A stretch of DNA of 32,000 nucleotides, taken from NCBI GenBank assembly GCA_029862745.1, contig JAOTWS010000004.1, positions 105,314 through 137,313 of the forward strand. The letters run 5' to 3'. Position numbers and translations under genes: made by a program. Origin of the DNA: Nitrosopumilus sp. (lineage in GTDB: Archaea > Thermoproteota > Nitrososphaeria > Nitrososphaerales > Nitrosopumilaceae). The notes beneath the pieces are model-generated. The model searched no databases and was not told the origin of the DNA. It worked only from the letters and a program-made list of their open reading frames with translations. This document shows positions 7,042 through 25,180 of this stretch, piece after piece (within the stretch, counting starts at the first letter, position 1; every line of letters begins with the position of its first letter).

Positions 7042-8926
7042 TTTGGAAAAGTATGATGTAGCAATTATTGGCGGAGGATCTGCAGGACTTGCTGCACTAA
7101 AGCAATTATCCAATCTTGGAAAGCAAGCAATTCTATTAGAAGCAGGCTCTGAGGTTGGTACAAAGAACCTTTCTGGCGGAATTCTTTACTCAAAAAAACC
7201 ACAGAAAGGCACAGTGACAAACGTTGAAGAAATATATGAGAATTTTCTAGATGATGCTCCTTTTGAGCGTAAAATCACAAAATACATTTTACATTCAACA
7301 TCAAAAGACAAGGTTTACTCTATGGACCTCACAGCAGCTCACGAATATCAATCAAATTTTGGTTACTCTGTTTTACTAAACAAACTTAATTCATGGTTTG
7401 CAAAACAAGCAATAGAAACGGCTGAGAAACTTGGGGGTGGAGTTATTCCGGGAGTTCATGTCAAATCAATTTCTTGGAATGAATTAGGCAACGCGATAAT
7501 TCAAACTGATGAGTTGGATGATTTTGAAGTAAAGGCAGTGATTGCTGCTGATGGTGTAAATTCTGAAATAGCAGACATTGTTGGCGCAAGACCAAAGTTT
7601 ACACCTACTCAATTGTATCAAGGAGTCAAAGTAATTATAAAACTGCCTGAAGAAATTATTGAAAAAAGATTTGGAGTTTCATCAGATGAAGGTGCGGCAC
7701 ATCTCTTTGCAGGAGATATTACACTAAATCATATTGGAGGTGGATTTCTCTATACAAATTCTGACACACTTTCAGTTGGAGCAGTATACCACTATCACTC
7801 ACAGTTAGAAAATCCAACTGAGCCATGGGTATTGATTGATGCATTATTAAAAAATCCAATGATTAGTGAATTTATCAAAGATGATGTTCCAATAAAATCA
7901 AAAATAGATAAAAGCTTGCCACAAGAAGAACAACTTCGAGTTCGTTTTGCAGTTGCAAAACAAATTAAAAACTGGAATGAGATACGTTCATCATATTTTT
8001 CTTCTAGCGGGAAGAAACGTCTGATTGATTCAGGAAAATACAAGTCTGATGAGGACATTAAAACTAGATTAACTGAAATTGAAGACCAATTGAGAAGTTT
8101 AGGAGTATCTTTTGGTTCGGATTATGTTGAAGCAGAATATGGTGCAAAATTAGTTCCAGATGGGAAGAGATGTAGAATGCAAAAACCCTTCTTCAAAAAT
8201 ATTTTATTTGTAGGGGATGCAGCAGGTAGGGGAATTTTTGTAGGTCCAAGAATTGAGGGTCTTAATGTAGGAATTGATGATGGTGTAAGAGCTGCTAATG
8301 CTGTTGCACGAGCAATTGACAAAAATGATTTCTCTGAAAATTCTCTGGGCGAGTATTACTCTAAGGAGACAGAAAATAGTCCATATACTACAGATATGAA
8401 GCAGATCGATAAGAATTACCTAAAGATTTTCCTTGATGCAGCAAAAGATGTTCCAAAAGATATTATCGGTGCACGCTATGGGCCTATCTTGAAAATGATG
8501 TCAAGTGGAAAACTTTTAGGTATTACGGTCAAATTTGCAAATATTCTAGGCTATGAGAAACTGCTTCCAATGATAGAGTCAGAGGACACATACGTCAAAA
8601 TTCCAATTCAACTAGCTGAACGTTTAGGTAAAACTGTATCGCAATCTTATTCTCCAAGCATTCAATCAATTGCAGATAGAATTGGGAATCTAAGTTACAA
8701 TGATGATCATTTATCTCACATTAAGATACTAAATCCTAAAAGCGAATTTATAAAAAAAATGGTAACTCTTTGTCCTGCAAAATGTTATACAGAAGAGGAG
8801 GAGGAGGGGGGCGGAGGAAATGTCATCATTCAACATGAAGGATGTGTAGATTGCGGAACTTGTTCACAGGAAACAGAATGGAGACACCCTCGTGGAGAAA
8901 AAGGAATTCATTACAAATACGGCTAA
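7025..8926 (+). CDS. fixCX: ETF-quinone oxidoreductase-like flavoprotein fused to a ferredoxin-like FixX domain (FixC-FixX fusion)
   Basis: The N-terminal dinucleotide fold is YDVAIIGGGSAGLAAL. ILFVGDAAG is the FixC GDAAG motif. The C-terminal CPAKCYT...HEGCVDCGTCS is FixX-like. The start could be TTG 7025 or TTG 7043. Confidence 0.85.
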   Translation: MWRLSNLEKYDVAIIGGGSAGLAALKQLSNLGKQAILLEAGSEVGTKNLSGGILYSKKPQKGTVTNVEEIYENFLDDAPFERKITKYILHSTSKDKVYSMDLTAAHEYQSNFGYSVLLNKLNSWFAKQAIETAEKLGGGVIPGVHVKSISWNELGNAIIQTDELDDFEVKAVIAADGVNSEIADIVGARPKFTPTQLYQGVKVIIKLPEEIIEKRFGVSSDEGAAHLFAGDITLNHIGGGFLYTNSDTLSVGAVYHYHSQLENPTEPWVLIDALLKNPMISEFIKDDVPIKSKIDKSLPQEEQLRVRFAVAKQIKNWNEIRSSYFSSSGKKRLIDSGKYKSDEDIKTRLTEIEDQLRSLGVSFGSDYVEAEYGAKLVPDGKRCRMQKPFFKNILFVGDAAGRGIFVGPRIEGLNVGIDDGVRAANAVARAIDKNDFSENSLGEYYSKETENSPYTTDMKQIDKNYLKIFLDAAKDVPKDIIGARYGPILKMMSSGKLLGITVKFANILGYEKLLPMIESEDTYVKIPIQLAERLGKTVSQSYSPSIQSIADRIGNLSYNDDHLSHIKILNPKSEFIKKMVTLCPAKCYTEEEEEGGGGNVIIQHEGCVDCGTCSQETEWRHPRGEKGIHYKYG

Positions 8927-8927
8927 T

Positions 8928-9602
8928 CTAGACTTTAATTTTTAGCATTTTTAATTCATTATAGGCTTCTTTCATTTTAATGTAAAAATCTTTGACAGTT
9001 GGAGGAAAAATAGAAAATGCAATATAAAATTCCTCAGCTTCACTAATGTATCTAGAGACTTTTATCGAGTTAGGATTTTGTGAAATAAATTTCATGTTGT
9101 TTATCCTGTCACAGAGTTTTATAATCTTGACATCATAATCTGATTTTGTAAGTTCAATACAATAGTCTAAAAATCTTGCAGAATTTTTTTCAGATTCATT
9201 CTTGCCAGTATAGTTTTCCAATGGTTTAGTTTTCAAAGTATGACTTACATTGTATACATATTCCCCAAATCTGTGTCTAAAATATGCATCAAAGCCATAA
9301 GATTTTGAAGCATACACGTCTAAAATTTTCTCATCGTCTTCCATTATATCATGTAAAATAGATGAAACAATTTGAAGAGATGTAAGTAATCTATTAGTTG
9401 TATTATAATGACGGATCACATCAATTGTCACAGGCCAGATGTGAGTTTCAAGAAAAGATGATTTTTTATCCTCTCGCTTAAGATTTGAATGTACTTCCTC
9501 AGCCAAGTCTATGGCATTTTGAATAAAACTATCTACTTGCATGTGAGATTCATTTTCGATTACATTCAAAAGATCTTTTTTTGTTGCAGAATTAATTTTC
9601 AT
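8928..9602 (-). CDS. HD-domain phosphohydrolase (SpoT/RelA-hydrolase-like HD_4 type)
   Basis: H...THIWPVTIDVI followed by SSILHDIMEDD matches the H...HD...ED pattern (aaLLHDvvEDt) of (p)ppGpp-hydrolase-type HD domains. Confidence 0.65.
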   Translation of the reverse strand: MKINSATKKDLLNVIENESHMQVDSFIQNAIDLAEEVHSNLKREDKKSSFLETHIWPVTIDVIRHYNTTNRLLTSLQIVSSILHDIMEDDEKILDVYASKSYGFDAYFRHRFGEYVYNVSHTLKTKPLENYTGKNESEKNSARFLDYCIELTKSDYDVKIIKLCDRINNMKFISQNPNSIKVSRYISEAEEFYIAFSIFPPTVKDFYIKMKEAYNELKMLKIKV

Positions 9603-9895
9603 AATACCTATATTACAACATCATTGAAAAACATGATCTTGTAGACATTAACGTCTAGCCCTTAGATAGGAATCTCCAATTTTGAAAGCGGCTAGATATG
9701 TTTAGTGGGGGTTTTATATTGATAATTTAGTATTTTTCAAAAGGAAATTTTACCTAATGTTAGAAAACATTACTCTTTGGAATTTCACTTGAAGAAATTA
9801 AACGGTTTTAAACTAATTTTGCAAAATTTGTCTTCTACACCAGCCTTAAGAAATTTTTTGTCTGCTCTTTGTTGGCTTGTAGTGTGTATGATTTA

Positions 9896-10459
9896 TTATT
9901 TTCTTCTCAAAACTGCATAGATAGAGTCATCTTTTTGATTCTCAGTGTAAACTTTTAATTCTAATATTTCAAAATCAGGCTCAAAAAGTTCCCTCAAAGA
10001 ATCCAACTCATAATATACAAACAACAACCCTTCGAAATTCTCAGTTTTGTTACCTTTCCAAAAAGAATGAAATAATATTCCATTGGGATTAAGAAGGTCT
10101 TTTTGTTTTTTAAGAGATGTTTTCAAGTCATCAGTTCTCAAGTGATGTAAAACCTTGTTAGAGTATATGCAATCAAAAGTTCTCTCGGTAAGAAGAGTCA
10201 CTGCATCCAGTTTTAACAAGTCAGCATTTTGATTTTGTTTTCTGTATCTATCCAAGAAAATTTGTGAGTTATCAGAGCCTGTAGCAGCAAAAGTTTTACT
10301 CAATATATCCAAGTCTTTTCCAGGACCCATTCCAAGCTCCAACACAAAAGATTTCTCAGGTAGAAATTTGTGTAAAATTTTAATCAGTTCTGCCCCATCA
10401 AATCCTTCTACCATTTTTACATATTCGTCTACGCCTTTTTCAGTATCAAAAAATCCCAT
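9896..10459 (-). CDS. Class I SAM-dependent methyltransferase
   Basis: Motif I is VLELGMGPGKDL. An acidic post-I residue (GSDNS) and a motif II-like FDCIYSNKVLHHL follow. 187 aa. Confidence 0.8.
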   Translation of the reverse strand: MGFFDTEKGVDEYVKMVEGFDGAELIKILHKFLPEKSFVLELGMGPGKDLDILSKTFAATGSDNSQIFLDRYRKQNQNADLLKLDAVTLLTERTFDCIYSNKVLHHLRTDDLKTSLKKQKDLLNPNGILFHSFWKGNKTENFEGLLFVYYELDSLRELFEPDFEILELKVYTENQKDDSIYAVLRRK

Positions 10460-10515
10460 AGTTTTTGGTTATAATGATTAGAAGTTTATAGCTAGCTTTT
10501 GTGTCAGGATTTATT

Positions 10516-10630
10516 TGATGATGATGATTTAGATTAAGATTTAGAGTTTGAATCTATTTTAGATATTAAATAAGAATAGAAAAAACATGTAAAAACTAGG
10601 AATCTTTGAAAATAGGAATCATCATCATCA
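10516..10630. repeat. 14-bp inverted repeat made of (ATG)n/(CAT)n tracts flanking an ~87-nt spacer
   Basis: TGATGATGATGATT (10516-10529) is the reverse complement of AATCATCATCATCA (10617-10630). TAGGAATC is duplicated inside the spacer (10597-10604, 10613-10620). Confidence 0.6.
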
Positions 10631-10642
10631 TGATGGTTAAAA

Positions 10643-10756
10643 TTAGCAGTTACATTTACTAGATTTATTTAATTTAGAATTGTTGCATATTTTACAGTCT
10701 AGCAAACATTTGTCTTCAGGACAATAACCACAAAATTGCATTTTCTTCATCTTCAT
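10643..10756 (-). CDS. Unannotated 37-aa, 7-Cys mini-protein, stop/start-coupled to the HxlR regulator gene
   Basis: My translation is MKMKKMQFCGYCPEDKCLLDCKICNNSKLNKSSKCNC*. Its ATG (10756-10754) shares one nucleotide with the regulator's TGA (10758-10756), giving TGATG. It is below the 60-aa track cutoff. Confidence 0.35.
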   Translation of the reverse strand: MKMKKMQFCGYCPEDKCLLDCKICNNSKLNKSSKCNC

Positions 10757-11133
10757 CATTTCTTTGACCATTTTCTCATCCATTCAAGCAGACCAGTAAT
10801 GGATTCGATTAACTCTTGACCTTTTTTGGTTAGCTTGTATTCTACTCTTGGTGGAACCTCTGCAAATGTTTTTCTTTCCAATATTCCCTCAGATACTAGT
10901 TCAGATAACCTTGTAGATAGTGTCCTACTGCTAATTCCTTTAAGTGATTCTTTGAACTGCTTGTGTCTTACTGGTTTTGTCGTACAGCAAAGTGGAAAGA
11001 GAATCTCAAGTGTTGCCCTTTTTGTGATCAGTTCCCTGATTGTAAAAGTCTCTTTTAATAATTTTGAAGCATCATATCCTGCAAATTCACAATTGTTTTC
11101 AATTACTGCCAGCTTTTTTCCTTTAGTTTCCAT
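10756..11133 (-). CDS. HxlR-family winged-helix transcriptional regulator
   Basis: RHKQFKESLKGISSRTLSTRLSELVSEGILERKTFAEVPPRVEYKLTKKGQEL is the canonical HxlR wHTH. It is divergent from arsM. Confidence 0.85.
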   Translation of the reverse strand: METKGKKLAVIENNCEFAGYDASKLLKETFTIRELITKRATLEILFPLCCTTKPVRHKQFKESLKGISSRTLSTRLSELVSEGILERKTFAEVPPRVEYKLTKKGQELIESITGLLEWMRKWSKK

Positions 11134-11196
11134 AATTGCACTAACTGTAATGGGTTCTACTTGACAACTTTAATAGTTTACCTAGTAAACCATAAC

Positions 11197-11955
11197 ATGG
11201 AAAATTCAATTAAAGAAGACATTAAAAAAAGATATTCCAAGATAGTAGTATCTGGAAATGACAGTTGTTGCTGTATGCCAGGAGAATGCAAACCAGGAGA
11301 TTCTCCAGTTGATGCAACAAAGTTGATTGGCTATGACCAAAAGGATCTTGAATCAATACCCCAAGAAGCAATTCTAGGCGTGGGGTGTGGTGCACCAATT
11401 AATCATGCCAGTCTAAAAGAAGGAGAAATCGTAGTTGATTTGGGTTCAGGGGCTGGAATTGACATATTCCTAGCTGCAAAAAAAGTAGGAAGTTTTGGAA
11501 AGGCAATTGGAATTGACATGACAGACCAAATGCTAGATAAAGCAAGAGAGAACGCAACAAAGGGAAACTATTCCAATGTTGAATTTAAAAAAGGAGACAT
11601 TGAAAAGGCAATTCCGTTAGAACACAATTCAGTTGATGCAGTGATTAGTAATTGTGTGATCAATCTTACAACAAACAAGAAAAATGCATTCAAAGAAGTC
11701 TTTAGAATCTTAAAAAAGGATGGAAGGATGGTGATTTCAGACTTGATCACAGATGTAGAATTACCTCCAGAGAAAGTCAATTCAGATCAATGGTGTGAAT
11801 GCATTGATGGAGCACTCACAAAAGAAAACTATCTTTTTTGCATGAGACAAGCTGGATTTGAGAAGATCAAAGTTTTAGAAGAGAGAGCATACATGCAAGG
11901 AGAAAATATCAATGGCAGAAAAATTACTAGTCTTATAATTAAGGCAGTAAAATAA
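11197..11955 (+). CDS. arsM: Arsenite S-adenosylmethionine methyltransferase (ArsM-like)
   Basis: IKKRYSKIV...SCCCMPGEC is the N-terminal Cys cluster, followed by LGVGCGAPI and [13 protein letters not shown] (motif I). I prefer ATG 11197 (MENSIKED) over the track's TTG 11161, because it leaves a 63-nt divergent promoter. Confidence 0.8.
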
Positions 11956-11971
11956 TTTTCATGAAACAAGA

Positions 11972-12385
11972 ATGAAAAAAATTCTTTTTGTCTGTGTTGA
12001 AAATGCAGGTAGAAGTCAGATGGCTCAAGCATTTTTTAAAAAATATCTGCCATCAGAGTTTCAGCCAATCAGTGCAGGAACAAAGCCTGCAGCAAAAGTA
12101 AACTTAATTGTAGTGCAAGCAATGAAAGAAGTTGGAATTGACATTGAGGACAACTCTCCTCAAAGCATCTCACAGCAGATGATTAATGAGACAGAGATTG
12201 CAGTTAACATGGGATGCATTGACAAAGAGTCATGTCCTGCATTATTTTTAAAAAATGTGCAAGACTGGCAGATATCTGATCCGAAAGGAAGATCAATTGA
12301 GGAAGTAAGGGCAATTCGTGACCAGATAGAGCAAAAAGTAAAAGATCTCATAGTTTCTGTGACTAGAAAAAAAGAATCTATTTGA
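11972..12385 (+). CDS. arsC: Arsenate reductase, LMW-PTPase family (ArsC)
   Basis: The N-terminal ILFVCVENAGRSQMA is the C-x5-R-S P-loop. 137 aa, immediately downstream of arsM. Confidence 0.8.
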   Translation: MKKILFVCVENAGRSQMAQAFFKKYLPSEFQPISAGTKPAAKVNLIVVQAMKEVGIDIEDNSPQSISQQMINETEIAVNMGCIDKESCPALFLKNVQDWQISDPKGRSIEEVRAIRDQIEQKVKDLIVSVTRKKESI

Positions 12386-15841: not shown

Positions 15842-15955
15842 AATTTGGCCCCATGTAATTGATTAATAAGGTTATTAGAGAAAAAATATTTTTGTGATTA
15901 TTATTTCATCATCCTATGTAATATTATAAAACCTGAAATTTAATTGAAACAAATT

Positions 15956-16096
15956 CTATTTCTTTGCCAATAGTTCTTTTAGAGAATCTATTAACTCATT
16001 ACAATTTTTTAGACATTCAGTGATGTAATCAACAAATCTAAGATATTCTTTTTCAGATTCTTCTAAAGATTTACGACAGCCGTCATGTTTACACGA
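15956..16096 (-). pseudogene. Start-less 46-codon helical ORF beginning exactly at a repeat boundary (possible 5'-truncated gene remnant)
   Basis: The minus-strand frame reads SCKHDGCRKSLEESEKEYLRFVDYITECLKNCNELIDSLKELLAKK*. There is no ATG/GTG/TTG between the upstream TAG (16097-16099, inside the 30-bp repeat) and the stop. Confidence 0.25.
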
Positions 16097-16122
16097 CTAA
16101 AACGGAGGATTTCTATTTTTAT
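16093..16122. repeat. Copy 1 of an imperfect 30-bp direct repeat (ACGACTAAAACGGAGGATTTCTATTTTTAT)
   Basis: 26/30 identical to 18336-18365, with a 16-bp perfect core GGATTTCTATTTTTAT. It lies 35 nt downstream of the stop of the minus-strand symporter gene. Confidence 0.7.
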
Positions 16123-16157
16123 CGACAAAGAGTAAAAATCAACATTATTCTGTTCTT

Positions 16158-17438
16158 TTAATCCCGCGTTATTTTGTCAAATACACAACAGGCGGTAAGA
16201 TCTCCCGTAACATTTACCATAGTTCTAATCATGTCCAAAATTCTATCTACAGAAATCAACAACAAGATTCCAACAGGAGGAATGCCTACAGTAATCAGTA
16301 TGGTGGACAAGACGATTACTCCTGCGCCAGGTACAGCAGGGGTTCCAATAGAAGCCAAAAGAGAGGCTATGATTATCACCAATATAGATATCATACTTAA
16401 TTCGATTGCAAAAAGCTGTGCCAAAAAGAAGACAGCTATAACCTGGTATAGCGCAGTTCCATCCATATTCACAGTAGCTCCTAAAGGAATAACAAATTTT
16501 GAAACTCTAGTATCTATTCTCAGATCATCTTCTGCAGTCTTTAATGTTATTGGCATTGTAGCCATGGAACTGGCTGTTGAAAAAGCCAACGTTTGCGGAT
16601 TACGGAATTTCGAAAAGGTAGAAGATATTGATCTTTTTGCTACGAATTTTAAGAACAATGTGTATACCAGTAACATAATTCCAAGACCTAGAACAACGGT
16701 TCCCATGTATGCCCCCAATCCAACCATTGTTCCCACACCAACTGTTGCAACCATTCCAACAATCAATCCAAAAACTGCAAACGGTACAATCTTCATAGAA
16801 ATCAAAAGAATGTGCAGTGTAATTTTTTGGATTGATTCTAGTACACCTAGCAATGGCTTGATTGATTCTTTTGGAAGAACTGCCATGGATAGACCTACAA
16901 TGAGTGCCATCACCAAGATGCTAAACATTTGCCCTTCAAGATACGAAGAAATAGGATTTTTTGGAATTATATTGGATACGGCATTTGGAATATCATCTAA
17001 TGAAAAGCCATCTTTGATTTGTAGATCATCATCTGAAAGATCATGAGATTCCTGAAGAGAAGTAAGATCAAGAATACTACCTGGAGAAATAATTGATGCA
17101 AGAAACACAGCTACAAGTATTGCGATTGTAGTAGTGATCACAAAGTAAGTGCCGACACCCAATCCTAGAGTTTTTAGTTTATCTTTTGCTCCCAGATTAG
17201 TAATAGCCACAACAATAGAGGCAAAAATTAGCGGGACAATAATCATTTGAATTATACTCAAAAATATGTTGGCAGGAATTTTCAGATAGGATGATAAAGA
17301 ATCTAAAGCGTTATCATCTATCCCAACACCTACATCATCACCTAAAACTAATCCCACACAAAGTCCTATGAGTAAAGACAATACAACCTGAAGCCACAAA
17401 TTCTTGAAAATATAATTTTTAAACATCATTTTATTCAC
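16158..17438 (-). CDS. Dicarboxylate/amino acid:cation symporter (DAACS / GltP-GltT family)
   Basis: Family signatures are PLGATVNMDGTALYQ and VDRILDMIRTMVNVTGDL. 426 aa, polytopic. Confidence 0.9.
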   Translation of the reverse strand: MNKMMFKNYIFKNLWLQVVLSLLIGLCVGLVLGDDVGVGIDDNALDSLSSYLKIPANIFLSIIQMIIVPLIFASIVVAITNLGAKDKLKTLGLGVGTYFVITTTIAILVAVFLASIISPGSILDLTSLQESHDLSDDDLQIKDGFSLDDIPNAVSNIIPKNPISSYLEGQMFSILVMALIVGLSMAVLPKESIKPLLGVLESIQKITLHILLISMKIVPFAVFGLIVGMVATVGVGTMVGLGAYMGTVVLGLGIMLLVYTLFLKFVAKRSISSTFSKFRNPQTLAFSTASSMATMPITLKTAEDDLRIDTRVSKFVIPLGATVNMDGTALYQVIAVFFLAQLFAIELSMISILVIIIASLLASIGTPAVPGAGVIVLSTILITVGIPPVGILLLISVDRILDMIRTMVNVTGDLTACCVFDKITRD

Positions 17439-17659
17439 TTTAAAACTAATTTTATGTTAAAATTTCTCTGAAAAATTCTAGACATGTAGAAATAAAACAC
17501 GCCTTCCATAAAAGGGATTAAATCCAAAGTAGGCACACGAACAAAGGATTTTTCAAGAGAATCATTTGTTATATTTTTTTGATTTACGTTCTTTCTCAAT
17601 TAGATCCCATGCTTTTTTTAGTTTCAGTAGATTGTAATGATTTTTTCTACCTTTTAGAG

Positions 17660-18241
17660 TCAATAGGTATTAAATGAAGAAGGATATCCAGTTATGATTT
17701 CATGCAATGGTTTGATGAGTTTACTAAAATCTACTGAAGGTTTTTGAATTTTAGGTTCATTTGTGATAGGATCAAAATCAATATATGAACTAGCGAGTCG
17801 TATGTCATGACCTTGTTTTCCAGTATTCTTTAATTCAATTTCTTTTTTTATAATATTTGAAATTGTTGACAGATCAAGTGAATAATCAAATCCACTATAT
17901 CCGCCTAATAACAAATCTTCTGCCATTTCATCTGCTAGTTCATCACTTCCATCTAGTTCAATCAATGAAACTGCCTTTTCCATTTTTGTTAAATGTGAAT
18001 AGATACCATCTTTAGAGGATAGGAGAATTTTTGAATTACTCTGTTCTATTTTATCATAAATGATTTTTGCCTTTCCAATCTCTTCCATCGCAAATTCAAT
18101 TGGGATTGCCAAATGGTCTGTTCTATTATTTGAAACATACATGTCAGCATCATTAAGATATGACCATGCATTATCAAGACACATTGTAATAGCTTTTTCT
18201 GCTTGTTCTCGAGTCAATTCATACGTAGTTTTGTTAGTCAT
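17660..18241 (-). CDS. AbiV-like HEPN-domain protein (abortive-infection family)
   Basis: CLDNAWSYLNDADMYVSNNRTDHLAIPIEFAMEEIGKAKII matches the AbiV N-terminal pattern (n-A...L..dA..L......A..la..a.EE.GKa). SHLTKMEKA and IRLASSYIDFDP then match H..K and R...lYvD. I prefer ATG 18241; the track uses TTG 18286. Confidence 0.55.
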   Translation of the reverse strand: MTNKTTYELTREQAEKAITMCLDNAWSYLNDADMYVSNNRTDHLAIPIEFAMEEIGKAKIIYDKIEQSNSKILLSSKDGIYSHLTKMEKAVSLIELDGSDELADEMAEDLLLGGYSGFDYSLDLSTISNIIKKEIELKNTGKQGHDIRLASSYIDFDPITNEPKIQKPSVDFSKLIKPLHEIITGYPSSFNTY

Positions 18242-18335
18242 TATAGATTTAGATAAAAAAAATTCGTTATAATGATTCTCTAACAAATCATAATCTACGT
18301 AATTACCTAGACATCATTCTAACATAGCACAATTT

Positions 18336-18365
18336 ACGCCTAGAAAGGGGGATTTCTATTTTTAT
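18336..18365. repeat. Copy 2 of the imperfect 30-bp direct repeat (ACGCCTAGAAAGGGGGATTTCTATTTTTAT)
   Basis: See copy 1. It lies 26 nt downstream of the methyltransferase stop and upstream of the AbiV-like gene. Confidence 0.7.
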
Positions 18366-18391
18366 TCTTTATCAATAAACTCGTTCACACT

Positions 18392-18856
18392 TTATTTCAC
18401 TCTGTCTTTTTTAAAAACAATCCAGCAACTTGGATACGGTGCCACATTGCAAGTTGGAATACCTGATTCATCTAAAAATCTAATTCTGCCCTTGATAAAG
18501 TGAATACTAGATTTACCTTCCACAAATTTGTGCCACCAAATAGTGTCTGTCTTGGAATAAGTCAAAATCAGGCAAGACACATTGTTTCTTGTGTGTTGCA
18601 AATATGCAAATTCCATAAACTCTGAGACTCGTGAATATGGTGGATTCATAAAAAAATCTTGAGTTATAGAATATTCAAAACAATTCTGTTCTTTTGTGAT
18701 GTAATTTGGTAAGACATGGTTTACGTCACTTGCACATATATCAATTTGTGGATAAATGTCATGTTTTTTGCAGATATTTTGAAACAATTCCTTGGGAGTA
18801 CCATACTCATCTTGAACATTAATAAAATGAAGATGCTGGACTGATCTTGGATTCAT
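18392..18856 (-). CDS. Phage-type DNA N6-adenine methyltransferase-like protein (Dam PF05869-like, NPPY)
   Basis: QIDICAS...FFMNPPYSRVSEFMEFAY...LILTYSKTDTIWWHKF...IHFIKGRIRFLDESG follows the lDPCA / NPPY / gRi.F layout of phage Dam enzymes. ATG 18856 overlaps the upstream TGA (ATGA). Confidence 0.6.
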   Translation of the reverse strand: MNPRSVQHLHFINVQDEYGTPKELFQNICKKHDIYPQIDICASDVNHVLPNYITKEQNCFEYSITQDFFMNPPYSRVSEFMEFAYLQHTRNNVSCLILTYSKTDTIWWHKFVEGKSSIHFIKGRIRFLDESGIPTCNVAPYPSCWIVFKKDRVK

Positions 18857-19131
18857 TTTTGTTTGTCCCGTCTTTTGTGACGAACTCTTCTTCCACAACA
18901 TATGCAACATATTCTATATTCATCATCATGATCAAACCACACCCTACAATAACTGCAAAACCTCAATCCTAATTCATATTTTTTTTGTCCCCACTTTGTC
19001 TTGATTGCATATCTTGTACAGATTCCACGACAAGAACCTCCTGCAAGCAATCCTGTGCAACCTCTGCCATTTTTTGGTGGTCTATTCTTACAAGTAACAA
19101 CAAAAGACCTTTCAAGGTATGATTCTCTCAA
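18853..19131 (-). CDS. Cys-rich zinc-finger protein with a basic tail (92 aa)
   Basis: It has several Cys pairs (CSYCRVWF...RICCICCGRRVRHKRR). Its stop overlaps the methyltransferase start. Confidence 0.5.
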   Translation of the reverse strand: MRESYLERSFVVTCKNRPPKNGRGCTGLLAGGSCRGICTRYAIKTKWGQKKYELGLRFCSYCRVWFDHDDEYRICCICCGRRVRHKRRDKQK

Positions 19132-19299
19132 TTTTCAGCCTCCAGAGTTACTAATTTTTGTCTGGTATGACAAGTTTTGAGTGAGGTAAATTGGTAACTG
19201 ATGGTTCTTACTTTTTTTTCTACTAGAAAGACTAAGTAAAGAGAAGAGAAGTTCCAGGAAAAAAGAAACTTGACAAACTTGGTTACTGAGCTACTAGTA

Positions 19300-21498
19300 T
19301 TATACATCAAAGTCTTTTAGCCTCCCTTGGATGTGTTGTTTTTTTAATTCAATGTCAATCCAGAACTTTTTGTTGATTCCACTAGTATCCTTTCTCTGAT
19401 CAGTTTCGTAATATTCACCAAATATCATTCCAAACTTTTTGATTGTAACTAATGGAATTTCATTATCTATGCAAAAATCACAGTACCTTGAATAGACCTC
19501 ACGCTTTGATACCATAGAGCCTTCCTTTTCAATTACAACTTCATTGATGAACTGTATTACAGGATCACTGTGATGGTTCCATTGTTCGCGCAGTTTCTCA
19601 ATGTTGTCTTCATACTTGAATCGTCCACGCTCTGAAAGATTTTGTGCAATTAACACAAGTAGTGAGAAGACTCTGTCTTTTTCTTTTTTGTTTTGGGTTA
19701 ATTCATCTCTTAATTTTGGATTCTTTTCATCACCCAAGAACTGTCGTTTCCATTCAACAATTACAAATCTTCTAAAAAAACCATCAGACTGATCATGAAC
19801 ATAAGGAAACCTGTTTGCAGAAAATATCAGTTTAGTGTATGGCCTGAACTTGAATGGATGTCGATGTTTCTTTTCAGCAGTTATAGAGTCCCCTGATATG
19901 ATAATTTTTAGATTACCTGTCTTTTTTAGCTCGTTGCTTTCAATGTCTGCAAAGACATTTGCCATCTTACCAAACAGCTCAGCCTTTGAGAATCGTTCTA
20001 GCTCAATGTCATGTATGGTAATATTTGAGACATTTTCTGCACCCAAAATAGATTCAATATAGTCTAGTAGTACAGATTTACCATTAGAACCTGATCCAAT
20101 AAACATGAATGCTTTATCAAACTGTTTTTTTATGATACAGCATGCCATTATTTCAAGTACCGTAAAGAATTGTTCTCTGTCTAGTGTATCATTAATTGTA
20201 AAGCATGATGTAAGATATTTCAGAAATAGTGTGTCTTTCAAATATGATAAAATGGAATCAACGTCTATCTTTGTAATATCCAATGGATGGTACGATACTG
20301 GCAACATCACACAAGACAAATTTGATGGTGAGTGCTCTTGAGTTTCCAGTGTTTTTAGGTTCAAAATGCAGTTTTGAACAGTGATAATGCCAGGATCCGA
20401 GTCAAACTTTTCCCTATCCTCATAGTTTATGGCCTTTATCTTGTTGATTACCTCGTGTCGCTCTGTGGTGCAGCAGTTTTCTATCCACTTTTCACATTCT
20501 TCTTTGATTAGCGGTTCTGCAACGTTTGGCTGATATATCATTCCATTATACCATAACAGATCATCTGAGTCTCGCAGACACTTGAAGTGATTTGTTTTTT
20601 GTATTGTTGATACAGTGATTTCAACTATATCTTTAGGATTCTTTTTGTTGTTGTCCTCTTCTTCTATTGATTTGAAATATTTTTGTTCAGGATCATTTAG
20701 ATTCTTTTGAAACTGTGAATGCGCATCATTTACCCAACGTTCTACTTCAACATTTCCATGTGGAGGGTTACAAGAATTGTTTATCTTTATTGCCTCATGT
20801 AAGATATCTTCGTATTGCCAGTTCATGTGGAATCGTCGTAATGCCAGCTTGAATCCATTGTTGTATCTTTCACCTGCAGACCAGTTACCCTTTTCAAGTT
20901 CAGATGTTGGAATGATTATGTGGTGACCGTTTCCATTTGTCTGGTGTTTGGGAGTCCATCCATTGTTTTTTAGTTTCTCAATTAGTTGTTGACCTGTTGC
21001 ATTTACATCACAAATTGTAGTGGTGTTTGAAATTATTGTATATTTTTTTCCAGTTAAGACATAGTTTCCTGACTCGTCTTTATCATAGTGATTACTTGAT
21101 GCGCCAACAACATACGCACCGTTACTTTTTACCTCCATGCTGTATGGACCTTTTGAGAGAAAGGTGTTTGCCTGGTTTGGTAGTTGATTTATTTTAAAGT
21201 AAACGTGGTATCCATCACCTGTTCGCACCACAAGTGTTTTGTTGAGAACATTGTCTTTCATCATGTTTATCTCACCAATATCATCACAGTTATCAAAGTC
21301 TAGTACGATTAGATTGCCTGAAATTTTCCCAAGAATTACTGCAAAGTCTTGATCATCTGGAATTTCACCAGTAAACATTTCATACTGGTATTTGCTCCAA
21401 CCAGTCCTGATGTTCAGCGCTTTGCCAGATCCCTTTGGAATTGGAACAATGTTGATTCCCTGCTTTTTGTAAATTTCTTTTATTGTAATATCACTCAT
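19300..21498 (-). CDS. Replication protein: archaeo-eukaryotic PrimPol domain fused to a D5/P4-type SF3 helicase (732 aa from ATG 21498)
   Basis: PrimPol motifs are LIVLDFDN (DxD), VVRTGDGYHVYF (sGxGxH) and MEVKSNGAYVVGASSNH. Helicase motifs are the Walker A FMFIGSGSNGKSV, Walker B-like ANVFADIES, IISGDSITAEKKHR and DGFFRRFVIVEW (P4-primase C-terminal family). The start MSDITIKEIYKK overlaps the upstream stop (ATGA). Confidence 0.9.
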   Translation of the reverse strand: MSDITIKEIYKKQGINIVPIPKGSGKALNIRTGWSKYQYEMFTGEIPDDQDFAVILGKISGNLIVLDFDNCDDIGEINMMKDNVLNKTLVVRTGDGYHVYFKINQLPNQANTFLSKGPYSMEVKSNGAYVVGASSNHYDKDESGNYVLTGKKYTIISNTTTICDVNATGQQLIEKLKNNGWTPKHQTNGNGHHIIIPTSELEKGNWSAGERYNNGFKLALRRFHMNWQYEDILHEAIKINNSCNPPHGNVEVERWVNDAHSQFQKNLNDPEQKYFKSIEEEDNNKKNPKDIVEITVSTIQKTNHFKCLRDSDDLLWYNGMIYQPNVAEPLIKEECEKWIENCCTTERHEVINKIKAINYEDREKFDSDPGIITVQNCILNLKTLETQEHSPSNLSCVMLPVSYHPLDITKIDVDSILSYLKDTLFLKYLTSCFTINDTLDREQFFTVLEIMACCIIKKQFDKAFMFIGSGSNGKSVLLDYIESILGAENVSNITIHDIELERFSKAELFGKMANVFADIESNELKKTGNLKIIISGDSITAEKKHRHPFKFRPYTKLIFSANRFPYVHDQSDGFFRRFVIVEWKRQFLGDEKNPKLRDELTQNKKEKDRVFSLLVLIAQNLSERGRFKYEDNIEKLREQWNHHSDPVIQFINEVVIEKEGSMVSKREVYSRYCDFCIDNEIPLVTIKKFGMIFGEYYETDQRKDTSGINKKFWIDIELKKQHIQGRLKDFDV

Positions 21499-21641
21499 CT
21501 TCTTGAGATCTTCTCCCTTGAGCAATTGCATCCTGCAACAAAGCAGCCATACCAGGAACACGAATCAAGACCACATCTCATGCAGACTCCAATTCCCACA
21601 TCTTTTGTAAAACCATTAGCACATCTGCACCTTTTCTTCAA
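21495..21641 (-). CDS. 48-aa Cys-rich mini-protein (TTG start), coupled at both ends
   Basis: (M)KKRCRCANGFTKDVGIGVCMRCGLDSCSWYGCFVAGCNCSREKISRR*. TTG 21641 overlaps the upstream TGA (TTGA), and its own TGA overlaps the replicase ATG (ATGA). The track's longer 72-aa version would overlap the upstream gene by 76 nt. Confidence 0.4.
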   Translation of the reverse strand: MKKRCRCANGFTKDVGIGVCMRCGLDSCSWYGCFVAGCNCSREKISRR

Positions 21642-22195
21642 GATGTAACCTCCTCCAGTTTCTCTTTTAGCAAGAATATCCGAAATCCATTCCTGGAGAT
21701 AATACCAGTACACCTCATACAGTAAAACAAGTCAATTGGCCGTCTACCCAGTTTCTGATATGCTAGTTTGTATGCAACCTCATTGCAATGTGTACACAAT
21801 ACATGTTTCCTATGATCTTCTTTTTTGTAGGTGCATTTCCCACACTTGCCATACAGTCTCCAGCATAATGCAGCAGTGTTGTTACTTGTGTTACCACACT
21901 CAGGACATTTTTGTACATTGTAATAATCTGGATTACTTCTCTTGGCACAGTTTACACATTGTCCCCATAAATCCCATGATTTACCATATCTCTGGCTGAC
22001 AACTCCGCAACTAATGCATGTGCGATTCATTTCTTTTTCCATATCTCTGCAAAACATGAATTGCATATTGCAGGTGTATTGTATGTGAAAATCTCTTTTT
22101 TGCAAGACATACAGAATATGGTTTTGATGCGACTCAATTATCAGGCATCTCCCATATTCTAAATTCGGATATCTTTTGATGTGTTGTATCATCAC
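21638..22195 (-). CDS. Multi-zinc-finger protein (185 aa, many CxxC pairs)
   Basis: CISCG...CVNCA...CPECG...CGKCT...CTHCN...CMRCTG gives at least six CxxC knuckles. GTG/ATG start at 22195/22192. Confidence 0.55.
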   Translation of the reverse strand: MMIQHIKRYPNLEYGRCLIIESHQNHILYVLQKRDFHIQYTCNMQFMFCRDMEKEMNRTCISCGVVSQRYGKSWDLWGQCVNCAKRSNPDYYNVQKCPECGNTSNNTAALCWRLYGKCGKCTYKKEDHRKHVLCTHCNEVAYKLAYQKLGRRPIDLFYCMRCTGIISRNGFRIFLLKEKLEEVTS

Positions 22196-22273
22196 TGCAA
22201 TTGAATCGATCCATTTTGCAATACAATACGTCTTGTTCCCTCACACAAAACTCACACATACACAATCCCAATC

Positions 22274-22432
22274 TTATTCGCTCTCCTCTGAAAAAATTAC
22301 CTCATTATGATGATGACTAGACAAGTCATCTTCTAGAAATGATGTACCGTGTCTTTGTAGTTCTTTAATGGAAAAATAGTTTGAATTGTACCTTGCACAA
22401 TAATTACAAAACATACATCTTGCAAGAATCAT
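22274..22432 (-). CDS. Unannotated 52-aa Cys/His mini-protein
   Basis: My translation is MILARCMFCNYCARYNSNYFSIKELQRHGTSFLEDDLSSHHHNEVIFSEESE*. ATG 22432 overlaps the upstream gene's TGA 22431-22429 (ATGA). Confidence 0.4.
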   Translation of the reverse strand: MILARCMFCNYCARYNSNYFSIKELQRHGTSFLEDDLSSHHHNEVIFSEESE

Positions 22433-22668
22433 TGTGAGGCAACCTCTACAAACTTGTCATCTGTTTTTTCTTCATTGATTATATTTTCATTAAAGTCCCA
22501 AAACTTTATTCCAAGTTTTTTGGGATCATCATCATCATGTAAATTGATAATCTGCGAGACTTCTTCTATTGTTTTTTCTTCGATAAACTTTTGCCAGTAT
22601 GCATTTTTTCTATATGCAATACAATCTGCATGACCACAACTCTCATCATGAAATTCTTTTATTGTCAT
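22429..22668 (-). CDS. Hypothetical acidic protein (79 aa from ATG 22668)
   Basis: MTIKEFHDESCGHADCIAYRKNAYW... is preceded by GGAGAAG. The track start at 22716 adds an unlikely hydrophobic leader. Confidence 0.45.
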   Translation of the reverse strand: MTIKEFHDESCGHADCIAYRKNAYWQKFIEEKTIEEVSQIINLHDDDDPKKLGIKFWDFNENIINEEKTDDKFVEVASQ

Positions 22669-22822
22669 GATATGATCTTCTCCTTGTTTGAAACTTTTGA
22701 AAAATAATAGATACACTTGTTTTTGATAAATTTTAAACCGAGTTTACAAACTAGTTTTGAAATGATACCATCCATGAATTGGACTTTGATAGTTGGAATA
22801 CAACAACAATAACAAGGAAAAG

Positions 22823-22981
22823 TCATTGCTTGTTTTCCTCACTTAACAATTGCAGCAGATACTTGTATGCATCATCAGTGAATCTTGAATAACTAGAGTA
22901 CTGCTTTCCATCTCCAACAAATCTGCAGGCTTGTCTCTTCCAAAACTCTGAGACCTTAACTGGAACTTGGTTGTTAACCAT
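22823..22981 (-). CDS. Unannotated 52-aa ribbon-helix-helix (CopG/Arc-like) candidate regulator
   Basis: MVNNQVPVKVSEFWKRQACRFVGDGKQYSSYSRFTDDAYKYLLQLLSEENKQ* has a beta-strand/helix/loop/helix layout. It is transcribed divergently from the repeat-rich spacer. Confidence 0.4.
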   Translation of the reverse strand: MVNNQVPVKVSEFWKRQACRFVGDGKQYSSYSRFTDDAYKYLLQLLSEENKQ

Positions 22982-22982
22982 T

Positions 22983-23060
22983 GGTTACCTTTTAGGTACC
23001 TCAAATATTAAAGAGTTACTGATTAGGTACCTGTATAGTTACTTGATGGTCACCTTTAAG
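22983..23060. promoter_or_regulatory. Divergent control region with four GGTNACC/GGTACC palindromic cores and nested direct repeats (candidate operator array or origin)
   Basis: The cores are GGTTACC 22983-89, GGTACC 22995-23000, GGTACC 23026-31 and GGTCACC 23048-54. TTAGGTACCT occurs twice (22992-23001, 23023-32). AGTTACTGAT (23014-23) pairs with AGTTACTTGAT (23037-47). GGTYACCTTTWAG occurs twice (22983-95, 23048-60). Confidence 0.45.
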
Positions 23061-23148
23061 TAATTCAGTGCTCTAGACTAGCCATGCCATTAGAACAAAC
23101 AGGAGTAAAAACAAGAATGGTCAGAAAATCAAAAAAGAAGATGGGATA

Positions 23149-23532
23149 ATGCCAACAGACGAGACAATAAACCAAGCACCTGTAAAGATAGACAAGATCC
23201 TAAAGGAAAAGATACAGGAATGGGTCAAGACAGAGCAAGCTCATAACCTTGGATTTTATTCACTAGCAGAGTTTGTTACAAAGGCTTCAATGGAGGCATT
23301 TGAAAAATATGCAAAAACAAACGACAACCCAAAAAGATTTTTCATGCCAAATAATGAAAACCATTTACTGGATCTTGATTTGGATTTTTATCTAGAATCA
23401 GGAAAAGTTGTATGCGTTACATGTGAATCAGAAGACTGCATTCATATCAAAACAATCCAAACTGATAGAGTTGTAAAAAAACACATATCAAAATTTCTCA
23501 AATCAGTCAAGAAGAAAAGAAAGGATCAATAA
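23149..23532 (+). CDS. RHH-domain DNA-binding protein with a C-terminal Cys/His cluster and basic tail (127 aa)
   Basis: PVKIDKILKEKIQEWVKT...GFYSLAEFVTKASMEAFEKY is an RHH layout. It is followed by VVCVTCESEDCIH and the basic tail KSVKKKRKDQ. Confidence 0.5.
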   Translation: MPTDETINQAPVKIDKILKEKIQEWVKTEQAHNLGFYSLAEFVTKASMEAFEKYAKTNDNPKRFFMPNNENHLLDLDLDFYLESGKVVCVTCESEDCIHIKTIQTDRVVKKHISKFLKSVKKKRKDQ

Positions 23533-24443
23533 GTGGGATCACCCCATGGACTTTTAGTTAGTATAGGTGCAACAAATTTAATAATCAAACCTATGAGACC
23601 TGCCAATCCTATTCCTGTTGCTGCCTGAGTTGTAGTATCTTTTTGTATCGACTCTACATATTGCTCTATAATGTTTGGTGCAGCAATAATAACATCTGTC
23701 TTTTCTTTTCTGTCTGCTGTAAGTATACCATACCCTGCATCCTTTTTGTTTTGTTTCCAGTCCTCATCAGTGTATTCAAAGTAGAACAAATCCAAACCTA
23801 GCTTGTTTATCTCTCCAATGAATTGTAATTGCTCTGTTTTTGAAGACTCTATAGTAGACCAACCTGTTTCATATACAATATGCTTGTAGGGATATCTCTG
23901 GGTTAGCAATTCATTTATTTTTTGAATCTTGTTTGCAGAATCTGCTGGAGTAATCTCATCTGTAAAAACATCAGTAAAGATAAAGTCTACTGACATGGCC
24001 AATTCAGGATTATCAAGCCAAACCTTTGGATTACTCAATGTTGTGATTGGAATATCAGTCAACTGCTTTGCCTCTCTTATTTTGGAGATTAACTGCTCTT
24101 GGTTGATGGTTAGATCTTTTGAATTAATTATTATGGACTCTATGGTTCCAGGATATTTTGCATCAAGTGATATGACTTTTGAGACATCATCTGTCTCAAC
24201 TGATAATTTCAAATCATAGATATGAGCGTATTTTAGTATGGGCTCCAAATTAGAGTCTGAGTATACTCTGAGTTTACTGGACATTTTTGATAATACCTCC
24301 ATGTCCTCTCTTATCTGCTCATTTGATGGGAGAATCCCTTCTGGAGATTGACCTGTTCTAAATGGGGAATAGGAATAATTCTCAGCGTATACTGTAGAGA
24401 TAACAACACTAGACAGTAATAGAGCAGCAAGAAGAATTCTCAC
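23526..24443 (-). CDS. Secreted, C-terminally membrane-anchored GH17-like glycoside hydrolase (beta-1,3-glucanase-like TIM barrel)
   Basis: The signal peptide is MRILLAALLLSSVVISTVYA. VYETGWST matches the GH17 catalytic E-T/S-G-W-P-S box, and FYFEYTDEDWKQ matches f-F-E-a-F-D-E-x-W-K. The C-terminal TM segment is GIGLAGLIGLIIKFVAPIL. Confidence 0.55.
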   Translation of the reverse strand: MRILLAALLLSSVVISTVYAENYSYSPFRTGQSPEGILPSNEQIREDMEVLSKMSSKLRVYSDSNLEPILKYAHIYDLKLSVETDDVSKVISLDAKYPGTIESIIINSKDLTINQEQLISKIREAKQLTDIPITTLSNPKVWLDNPELAMSVDFIFTDVFTDEITPADSANKIQKINELLTQRYPYKHIVYETGWSTIESSKTEQLQFIGEINKLGLDLFYFEYTDEDWKQNKKDAGYGILTADRKEKTDVIIAAPNIIEQYVESIQKDTTTQAATGIGLAGLIGLIIKFVAPILTKSPWGDPTY

Positions 24444-24527
24444 TATATGAGAATAGCAACATTATTGCTAATATGATTTGCCTATCTTAAACTCTCAACT
24501 GGGATCCAGTCAGGAATTATCTCTTTA

Positions 24528-24915
24528 TCATACATCTCTGAAAAAGGTCTTCTTCTTTTGGTGTTCTTGTTTTTCTCTTTGGAGATATAGTCGATCTGTT
24601 TTGTCCTTCATCATTCCATTCCTGCATGTTTTCTTGCAGATTCTAATGTATGAGATGATGACATATTCTTCTACTATTCTTTGAGCATCTTTTGCGTCTG
24701 AATTGTGACACAAGTGAGATTGAGTCTAGCTATGCATGTGCAAAAACATCTTTTCTGCAATGGTGGGTAAAATCCCCTACAAGACTCAAGTGCAGTCTTT
24801 CTAGATTCAAGATGTATTTCTCAAGTTTTGTAAAAACCAAAAACCTCTCAAGATATTGGCATGGTTACTTCTCTGTGACCTCAGATTTCTGCTTGCCAAG
24901 AAAATCTTGATAATA
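24528..24915 (-). pseudogene. Decayed tyrosine-recombinase (integrase)-like remnant, interrupted by two stops and at least one frameshift
   Basis: The minus-strand frames read YYQDFLGKQKSEVTEK * PCQYLERFLVFTKLEKYILNLERLHLSLVGDFTHHCRKDVFAHA * LDSISLV, then with a frame shift LCHNSDAKDAQRIVEEYV.... THHCRKDVFAHA resembles box II (H-x-x-R-h-x-f-A-x-h), and L-C-H-N-S...Y resembles the lGH...Y catalytic tail. The match was made by eye only. Confidence 0.35.
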
Positions 24916-25006
24916 TCATTTCCTAATACATGTAAAATTAGTACAAGTTATTATACAAGCCATGCATGGCCTAAGAGATATAAAGACACATTATTAATTT
25001 CAGGCA

Positions 25007-25180
25007 ATGAATCCAAAGCAGACGTTTAGGAACATGGTCAATACTATGAAAATGGCCAAAAAACCTGATAAAGATGAGTATCAACAACATCTTAGGCTTG
25101 TATTATTGGGAATAGCTGGAGTAGGAGCTATAGGTTTTACAATACAGTTTGTCTTTTCGGTATTAACATTTGGTAGGTAA
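25007..25180 (+). CDS. secE: Protein translocase subunit SecE / Sec61-gamma (57 aa, below the track cutoff)
   Basis: My translation is MNPKQTFRNMVNTMKMAKKPDKDEYQQHLRLVLLGIAGVGAIGFTIQFVFSVLTFGR*. It has a basic N-terminus and a single C-terminal TM segment, and holds the canonical position just upstream of spt5/nusG. Confidence 0.75.
   Translation: MNPKQTFRNMVNTMKMAKKPDKDEYQQHLRLVLLGIAGVGAIGFTIQFVFSVLTFGR

Follow-up and report, generated by a model that had tools for sequence, protein, structure and literature searches.

The closest described counterparts of the element reported here are the integrative and conjugative elements (ICEs) of Thaumarchaeota, which encode VirB4 and VirD4 ATPases and a prepilin peptidase, and no relaxase (Krupovic et al. 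2019, PMC6563490). According to the same survey, a VirB4/TrbE ATPase is found in 'most' of them, a TFIIB homologue located immediately upstream of a ParB-like gene is a coupling specific to these ICEs, primpol-S3H replicases occur in NCAV2-E1 and NitIsl-E3, tRNA-Pro(TGG) is the target of NCAV2-E1, and multicopper oxidases and dctA symporters are carried as cargo (PMC6563490). The present analysis deals with a stretch of 32,000 nucleotides from a Nitrosopumilus sp. genome (contig JAOTWS010000004.1, positions 105,314 to 137,313; hereafter the window), in which an initial annotation had flagged about 7.5 kb between a DAACS symporter gene and secE as a decayed, cryptic integrated plasmid. Marine Nitrosopumilus belong to the most abundant archaea of the ocean, and the routes by which they exchange genes are poorly known.

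Comparison with related elements indicates that the flagged 7.5 kb are very probably the replication end of a larger integrated element, extending at least from 614 to about 24961. Judged from its gene content, this element most probably belongs to the thaumarchaeal ICE class, as a compact form without a recognisable VirB4. The class itself was already described in 2018-2019, and the element of the window is an integrase-less addition to it, whose extent and class had been misjudged.

Extent of the element and comparison with published classes

Related lineages were found through the genomic contexts of the closest replicase homologues. They are L173, a Nitrosopumilus chromosome, L174/L180, L175 and L183-L185; the replicase is 90% identical to that of the window in L173, 82% in L174/L180 and 63% in L175. 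All four lineages have one collinear backbone in common, up to the TraG/VirD4 ATPase gene wherever the contig extends to it. In L173-L175, the relatives with a visible upstream side, the order is as follows: a tyrosine integrase matching PF00589, small open reading frames (ORFs), the PrimPol replicase, a Cys-rich protein of 92 residues in the window (Zn92) and a methyltransferase, sometimes with a PDDEXK nuclease, then a module of four genes coding for proteins of 246-269, 370-429, 208-239 and 217-232 aa, the last being a weak Peptidase_A24 match, and finally, after a variable stretch, a TraG/VirD4-like ATPase of ~1050-1090 aa. The methyltransferase is of the Dam type in L173 and L175 and of the N6/N4 type in L174, and a tRNA-Pro(TGG) adjoins the integrase of L173.

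Comparison by tblastn revealed that the TFIIB-like, ParB-like, 210-aa and prepilin-peptidase-like genes of the window correspond to the four middle genes of L173-L175 (36-70% identity). Overall, collinear homologues of 11-12 window genes, with PrimPol identities of 62-90%, are present in L173, L174/L180, L175 and L183-L185, and every backbone gene save the integrase is found in the window. The backbone common to the relatives runs from 614 to ~22453, where homology to L173-L175 stops, and is followed by a lineage-specific end reaching 24961. The closest sister is L183-L185 (PrimPol 83%, TFIIB-like 93% and ParB-like 87% identical), which starts with a GH17-like gene, a divergent homologue of the 127-aa gene of the window and small ORFs, continues with PrimPol, PDDEXK, Zn92 and Dam genes, and carries after Dam three ORFs, AbiV, the four-gene module and a multicopper oxidase. 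This order assigns the GH17-like gene, the 127-aa gene and AbiV to the lineage of the window.

The initial annotation had regarded the symporter as a core chromosomal gene, flanking a self-contained plasmid of ~7.5 kb, probably immobile since its integrase had decayed. The genes for replicase, methyltransferase and AbiV are real, assemblies from other samples do break at 17373-17547, and the region is absent from other species. Nevertheless, four collinear backbone homologues and TraG are located to the left of the symporter, so that the symporter is no boundary. In the interval between AbiV and TFIIB, homology of the window to L183 ends at ~17630 and resumes at ~15905, while in L183 AbiV is directly followed by TFIIB; the symporter is therefore an insertion, i.e. 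cargo, within the element. A metagenome scan detected symporter homologues, 80-91% identical, in other genomes, with unrelated neighbours on both sides, different in every relative.

The supposed integrase remnant at the other side of the 7.5 kb could not be confirmed either: Pfam searches on the three minus-strand frames of 24478-24946 returned nothing, nor did tblastn searches of the same segment with five integrases of related elements, one of them located directly upstream of a GH17-like homologue. The 19-nt similarity between the flanks (14/19), proposed as a possible boundary, is at chance level, since 95% of shuffles of both intergenic regions reach 14/19. A separate 7.5-kb plasmid is, on these grounds, very improbable. 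What stands of the original proposal is the presence of mobile DNA that is integrated, not viral and equipped with a PrimPol-helicase replicase, and its absence from related genomes.

The gene set had not been recognised as a known one. AbiV and the GH17-like gene recur in the sister element, and the combination of TFIIB-ParB, prepilin peptidase and VirD4 is the published ICE signature, which makes the set recognisable. The order and sizes of the TFIIB-like, ParB-like and ~200-aa products (242, 367 and 210 aa) match those of NitNCS1-E3 and NCAV2-E2, and a prepilin-peptidase-like gene and a VirD4/TraG ATPase accompany them. The primpol-S3H replicase is shared with NCAV2-E1 and NitIsl-E3, the tyrosine integrase and tRNA-Pro(TGG) target of the relative L173 with NCAV2-E1, and the metabolic or transport cargo and the lack of a relaxase with thaumarchaeal ICEs at large. 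In its working the element resembles this class, to which it most probably belongs.

Differences concern size, equipment and host. With about 25-27 kb, the backbone is smaller than the published median of 64 kb, its TraG is about 1050 aa long against about 425-445 aa in NCAV2, and the window copy has neither integrase nor att sites. No Pfam match to VirB4/TrbE/CagE was found in the window, in the 10 kb further left, in L173-L175 or in L180. The host is a marine Nitrosopumilus, whereas the ICEs named in PMC6563490 are those of Nitrosocaldus and Nitrosotalea, with other prefixes suggesting Nitrososphaera.

Two further classes are similar in part. Conjugative plasmids of Sulfolobus of the pNOB8 type, known also as integrated copies, encode a homologue of VirB4/TrbE, and their integrases are of the SSV type. 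They resemble the present family, by description only, in a TraG/VirD4-like ATPase, ParB-type partitioning, an integrase and the lack of a relaxase (PMC6563490). The cryptic integrated elements NitKor_MY1-E1 and NitAQ6f-E4 share with the window element a fused primpol-S3H replicase, a small size and many unknown small ORFs, and RHH/CopG-type regulators, methyltransferases and dctA-type symporter cargo are listed for their class (PMC6563490). The window element has in addition the module of TFIIB, ParB, prepilin peptidase and TraG, by which the ICE class is defined.

A viral origin was also evaluated. Five genomes of Nitrosopumilaceae spindle-shaped viruses encode an ORF21 product with 38-39% identity to the helicase half of the replicase, and a contig of the IMG/VR collection has the PrimPol, Dam and Zn92 module too, as might be expected for a defective provirus of a type lacking recognisable capsid, portal and terminase, none of which was found in the window, in agreement with the first reading. 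Such a provirus is nonetheless extremely improbable: the replicase is the only window protein with a match in the 34-kb virus genome BK067790, the viral protein has no PrimPol domain, and the presence of TraG, TFIIB-like and ParB-like genes suggests an element of conjugative or plasmid type.

Junction at secE and state of the window copy

A scan for Spt5, using one genome per species, yielded 80 loci from Nitrosopumilaceae, 76 of which are informative, i.e. include enough upstream sequence. A divergently transcribed, conserved gene of 258 aa, read as putative DtdA-like, lies within ~40 bp upstream of secE in 75 of these 76, and the conserved gene run continues beyond it in related species. None of the 80 loci contains a gene from the flagged 7.5 kb or from the left half of the window, and the left flank of the window is found in none of the 80 species. 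Homology of the relatives to the window begins at ~24962, the start codon of their 258-aa gene, and the right junction of the element is placed by this alignment at the secE promoter, about 24961. The genes displaced from their position upstream of secE are absent from the window and from the 10 kb further left, so that a plain insertion does not explain the junction.

The only other informative species without the 258-aa gene upstream of secE is L023 (1-9825 of the locus, NZ_OY734802.1), where small unknown ORFs and a MarR regulator take its place; the same chromosome also carries, elsewhere, the closest PrimPol element (L173), together with three TraG paralogues. Within the same scan, a 1.04-Mb scaffold titled 'Candidatus Rhodobacter oscarellae' (L028, NZ_LFTY01000001.1) contains a thaumarchaeal secE-spt5-L11 cluster, with an Spt5 96% identical to that of the window, and is probably a mislabelled or mis-binned archaeal sequence.

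The window population is represented in ENA metagenomes by contigs matching at 100%, such as ERZ27296367 k141_357013, which covers 12363-32000; identities of 99.97-99.995% were obtained against ERZ27296337 k141_155223 and GCA_029882175.1. The element has the same position in every contig of this population, and a contig 95% identical across secE-L11 keeps the junction region back to 24713. The breakpoints of assemblies from other samples, at 430-440, ~12363-12503, 17373-17547 and 24708, are all module junctions. In addition, L176 (1-1280, corresponding to window 13000-14278) contains a 1.3-kb patch of ~90% identity, with 136 differences, in an otherwise identical stretch of 13 kb; the patch spans the 210-aa and ParB-like genes. 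Breaks and patch together suggest ongoing recombination among sister elements.

The GC content ranges between 0.30 and 0.39 throughout the window with no step at the flagged 7.5 kb, and the composition of the region does not differ clearly from that of its flanks. GC and GC at third codon positions (GC3) are alike in the two backbone arms (0.348/0.301 and 0.345/0.298), while in the 8.3-kb interval between the prepilin-peptidase-like gene and TraG GC3 is 0.24, against 0.30 in each arm. The genes of this interval code for the beta and alpha subunits of an electron transfer flavoprotein (ETF), a FixC-like FAD oxidoreductase, an HD protein, two S-adenosylmethionine (SAM) methyltransferases, an HxlR protein and a low-molecular-weight phosphatase. 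In L173 the corresponding interval is 0.15 kb long, in L174 3.4 kb and in L175 about 2 kb, and in L183 it begins with a multicopper oxidase; it holds other genes in all four. The block is either cargo or captured host DNA.

Alternatively, the window might be a patchwork of two or more remnants of different mobile elements, in which a PrimPol/TFIIB/ParB remnant and a separate TraG remnant have been brought to either side of ordinary host genes (4979-12385) by rearrangement among the several related elements of one chromosome. The housekeeping type and lower GC3 of these genes, the occurrence of up to three TraG paralogues in other chromosomes, the broken dtdA-like synteny, the L176 patch and the assembly breaks at ~12363-12503 are all in line with this explanation. 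On the other side, the order from PrimPol through prepilin peptidase to TraG, all on a single strand, agrees with that of L173-L175, the interval preceding TraG is variable in these three as well, and both arms have the same composition. A patchwork is on balance unlikely, and the data are better described by one continuous element with variable cargo.

Several observations weigh against a single element of the ICE type. The block usually found in front of secE is missing from the other visible side of the element, so that a rearrangement must be assumed, and the 8.3-kb block, if host DNA, could separate two remnants. The left end of the element is not visible and is perhaps situated beyond the window. 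Integrase, att repeats and tRNA were not found: no integrase is present in the window or in the gene lists of the 10 kb further left, no tRNA-Pro fragment in the window, and no terminal repeats between 300-1134 and 24444-25006. ARAGORN detected no tRNA in the window, as the initial annotation had stated, or in the loci of 31 relatives, and Rfam searches at gathering and permissive thresholds gave no match. Neither an empty site nor a circular form was found. Look-ups of the exact replicase, symporter, Spt5 and TraG proteins returned 7-14 contigs, all of one arrangement; searches of IMG/VR (protein and profile), plasmid and phage collections for an episomal form returned shared replication modules only. 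Moreover, neither the window nor the relatives have a recognisable VirB4, VirB6 or pilin, conjugation being deduced only from TraG and from the published signature, and the TFIIB, ParB and prepilin-peptidase assignments are all under the cut-offs of the respective hidden Markov models (HMMs).

The copy had been described as decayed and, through the loss of its integrase, as probably immobilised. The integration module is indeed missing, and without an integrase gene the copy probably cannot excise alone. No integrase pseudogene is supported, however, and the other backbone genes are full-length, with dN/dS values against the sister copies between 0.07 (PrimPol, TraG) and 0.33 over ten genes. 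These values indicate purifying selection, rather than a decaying wreck. Since neither integrase nor VirB4 is found in the 32 kb and the 10 kb to the left, the copy is most likely fixed in place, or mobile only with the help of sister elements.

Read leftward from secE on the minus strand, the element would comprise the GH17-like gene, the divergent promoter with GGTNACC-type operators and two putative regulators, the Zn-finger ORFs, PrimPol-SF3, Zn92 and Dam, a first cargo spot with AbiV and the dicarboxylate/amino-acid symporter, the module of TFIIB, ParB, the 210-aa protein and prepilin peptidase, a second cargo spot of 8.3 kb and, leftmost, the VirD4/TraG-like ATPase. Excised elements of this type would replicate by PrimPol-S3H and be partitioned by ParB, their transcription would be served by their own TFIIB, and a TraG-dependent apparatus would move them between cells. 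The window copy would still express its cargo, namely the symporter, AbiV and the methyltransferase.

TraG homologues number about 140, up to three per chromosome, and together with more than 100 PrimPol homologues suggest that a compact family of conjugative type is common in Nitrosopumilus. The family consists of a conserved backbone with two cargo hot spots, where transporters, defence genes, copper oxidases and redox genes are found. The integrase-less copy illustrates how an element may become fixed beside essential genes, upsetting an otherwise very stable synteny.

Genes of the backbone, cargo and lineage-specific end

The features of the element are reported in the table, in order of position.

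Features of the integrated element and its right junction. Positions refer to the window; the basis of each assignment is given in the last column.
Feature	Positions	Strand	Basis
74-aa ORF, last backbone gene past TraG	614..838	-	76% identical homologue after TraG in L180
VirD4/TraG-like coupling ATPase, 1046 aa	1135..4275	-	PF12696
Variable interval between prepilin-peptidase-like gene and TraG, 8.3 kb	4979..12385		Pfam
Prepilin-peptidase-like (A24) membrane protein, 225 aa	12619..13296	-	weak PF01478
Conserved backbone gene, 210 aa	13356..13988	-	41-89% identical collinear homologues
ParB-like protein, 367 aa	13992..15095	-	position next to the TFIIB-like gene
TFIIB-like protein, 242 aa	15113..15841	-	Zn-ribbon match below cut-off
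Insertion of ~1.7 kb peculiar to the window element, with DAACS/SDF symporter (16158-17429)	15905..17630	-	PF00375, E=2e-110
Casposon-end-like R1 (TSD-like and TIR-like), 3' of symporter	16093..16138	-	matches NitNF5-C2 and NitNF5-C1 ends
AbiV-like HEPN gene, accessory/defence gene of the lineage	17660..18286	-	PF18728, TIGR04498
Casposon-end-like R2 (leader GTTT, TSD-like ATTGATAAAGAAT, then TIR-like), 3' of Dam	18336..18380	-	
Dam-type orphan N6-adenine methyltransferase	18392-18910	-	PF05869, E=1e-20; phrog_111; PADLOC orphan-MTase
Cys-rich 92-aa protein (Zn92)	18853-19131	-	conserved in related elements
PrimPol + D5_N + SF3 helicase replicase, 732 aa	19300..21498	-	Pfam/TIGRFAM matches
Small Cys-rich ORFs (72, 185, 45, 52 aa)	21495..22453	-	end of the backbone common to relatives
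Lineage-specific regulatory end: 95-, 53- and 52-aa ORFs (-), operator-like array, 127-aa ORF (+)	22429..23532	-/+	
Secreted, C-terminally anchored GH17-like (clan GH-A) TIM-barrel protein, 305 aa	23526..24443	-	predicted fold
Non-coding stretch of 517 bp up to the conserved secE promoter	24444..24961		no integrase signal, no Rfam match

In the replication arm, most of the original gene calls were borne out. The replicase matches PF09250 (34 bits), PF08706, PF19263 (DUF5906, 84 bits) and TIGR01613 (P4-primase C-terminal, 170 bits), all above their cut-offs, and the signatures of an AEP primase, D5_N and an SF3 Walker A are present, the motifs VLDFDN, TGDGYHVYF and GSGSNGKS being all found in the translation. 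A protein search detected 115 homologues, the closest of which, 90% identical, is encoded by a Nitrosopumilus chromosome. The methyltransferase, suspected from an NPPY motif, contains FMNPPYS in the translation, in line with its PF05869 match. At least five Cys-rich proteins, against about five originally counted, were found (92, 72, 185, 45, 52 and 53 aa), four of them conserved in related elements.

Homologues of Dam and Zn92 occur in L173, L175, L183 and an IMG/VR contig, and the replication module travels between different element types. On a viral-collection contig of 40.7 kb (L192, IMGVR_UViG_3300022690_002568), the segment 7967-12130 contains Dam, three tandem Zn92-like genes and a full-length PrimPol-S3H of 34% identity; none of the TFIIB, ParB and TraG genes is found on this contig.

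The AbiV-like assignment also holds, with PF18728 at E=2e-8 and 35 bits (cut-off 27.1) and TIGR04498 at 30.3 (cut-off 27); PADLOC gave no match. A homologue, 68% identical, lies between Dam and TFIIB in L183 and L185.

The genes located to the left of the symporter are assigned by weaker matches and by collinearity. The TFIIB Zn-ribbon PF08271 is detected in 5/5 family members, all below the cut-off (E=0.0017-0.003), and the TFIIB-like homologues are collinear and 36-93% identical. A ParBc_2 match, at only E=0.16, is found in 1/5 family members of the ParB-like protein, whose homologues are collinear and 39-87% identical; a single-sequence AlphaFold model of it has a pLDDT of 38 and is unusable, and a PDB profile search on the ParB-like and TFIIB-like proteins gave no decisive match. 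In the prepilin-peptidase-like protein PF01478 reaches E=2.7e-4 and 21.8 bits, below the cut-off of 26.5, and is likewise weak in L174; collinear homologues in L173-L175 and L183 are 48-72% identical. The 210-aa protein has weak winged-helix/AbiEi-like matches in PADLOC, which make a winged-helix similarity possible. For TraG, the PF12696 TraG-D_C match is above its cut-off (E=1e-6, 29 bits versus 22) and that to PF10412 is at the cut-off with 20.5 bits; the protein is 61% identical to TraG of L173 over the full length and 85% to that of L174/L180.

At the lineage-specific end, the repeat-laden divergent promoter of the initial annotation was located at 22982-23148, with an operator-like array of five sites (GTTAACC, GGTTACC, GGTACC, GGTACC and GGTCACC) at 22973-23054. 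The two regulators described as ribbon-helix-helix (RHH) proteins have no match among Pfam HMMs or PDB sequences, that label deriving from the sequence pattern only. A homologue of the 127-aa protein, 43% identical and divergent, adjoins the GH17-like gene in L184.

The 305-aa protein has only seven homologues and no Pfam match, and its sequence match in PDB to the GH17 enzyme 6fcg is weak (E=0.28). An AlphaFold model built on the alignment of its homologues is a (beta/alpha)8 barrel, with pLDDT >=70 in 165/305 residues, those of the barrel core. The best fold match in PDB is a GH17 glucanosyltransferase, 4wtp (E=6.9e-9, TM 0.58/0.65), followed by GH2 and other clan GH-A enzymes, and the motifs ETGWS and FEYTDEDW are conserved among the homologues. 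Model, fold match and motifs uphold the initial call of a secreted GH17-like protein; as a label for a predicted fold GH17-like appears reasonable, rather than a proven family membership. The protein perhaps acts on the cell envelope. Its homologues have the same place in L184 and lie right after a tyrosine integrase in L181, where the gene at 1-2040 is 72% identical and the contig has a weak terminase (GpA_ATPase) match. Judged from these contexts, the gene recurs at the ends of different mobile elements of Nitrosopumilus.

Casposon-end-like sequences and variable neighbouring sites

Past the stop codons of the symporter and Dam genes, at a distance of ~35-45 nt, lie the two copies of a 30-nt imperfect direct repeat (16093-16122 and 18336-18365, 26/30 identical, none expected by chance). 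As RNA the repeat folds no better than its shuffles. The repeat and ~20 nt before each copy match the ends of Nitrosopumilus family-1 casposons (PMC6563490 supplement). In casposon NitAR1-C1 a leader GTTT is followed by the experimentally defined target site duplication (TSD) of 13 bp, ATTGATAAAGAGT (PMC8464041), and then by the terminal inverted repeat (TIR) AAAAATAGAATCCCCCC; R2 reads GTTT ATTGATAAAGAAT AAAAATAGAAATCCCCC. The published TSD 21-mer occurs twice in the window, against 0.01 expected, with 2 mismatches in R1 and, relative to NitAR1-C1, 1 in R2, and the motif 3' of Dam is also found in the sister elements L183 (4350-4367) and L185.

R1 and R2, 2.2 kb apart, bracket AbiV and the symporter. 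Their TIR-like copies are in tandem, in the same direction, flanked by the TSD and its reverse complement, and neither a Cas1 casposase nor PolB is found in the window, so that R1 and R2 are not the two ends of one casposon. Both sites reproduce the leader-TSD-TIR junction of family-1 casposons such as NitAR1-C1, NitNF5-C1 and NitNF5-C2; in those, however, Cas1 and PolB lie between inverted TIRs and the target is the 3' end of ef-2, while here the copies are tandem, enclose neither gene and are located inside a mobile element. The simplest guess is that a casposon once inserted into the cargo spot, and that it later decayed and recombined.

More speculatively, the element could carry a working family-1 casposase target just after Dam, made up of the leader GTTT and a 13-bp TSD with one mismatch, and the AbiV/symporter cargo would have been acquired by casposon insertion or by casposase- or TIR-mediated recombination. 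GTTTATTGATAAAGAAT may be such a target sequence. Conservation of the motif in the sister element, together with the tolerance of casposase for substrates of 7 nt to 4 kb (PMC8464041), leaves room for this idea; tandem ends without Cas1 or PolB speak against its simple version, and as a whole it is rather doubtful. If true, a Cas1-family integrase would be a cargo-capture device inside a conjugative element. The casposon-end-like sequences in any case point to interplay between two classes of mobile elements.

Further variable sites were observed at both sides of the window. At the left end, an ORF of 241 aa running off the window contains, at 42-401, ~24 tandem units of 15 nt (GGGTATGATAAAAAA-like, a 5-aa repeat); this tract is the sole strain-variable part of the left 14 kb, with 53 mismatches in L178. 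The strain variant L177 has an extra 9 kb (12075-21133 of that locus) at window position 430-440, just past the 74-aa ORF; of its 13 ORFs one has a cupredoxin domain and the others have no Pfam match. This segment could be a part of the element lost from the window variant.

To the right, a contig (L086, L090) follows the window without a difference as far as 26763, a point between the gene of an AsnC-type regulator and the L1 gene, and carries different genes beyond. Insertions of 1-8 kb among L11, AsnC and L1 are found in other species (L004, L026, L060, L072 and L076), and the L11-AsnC-L1 stretch looks like a second variable spot in the ribosomal-protein neighbourhood.

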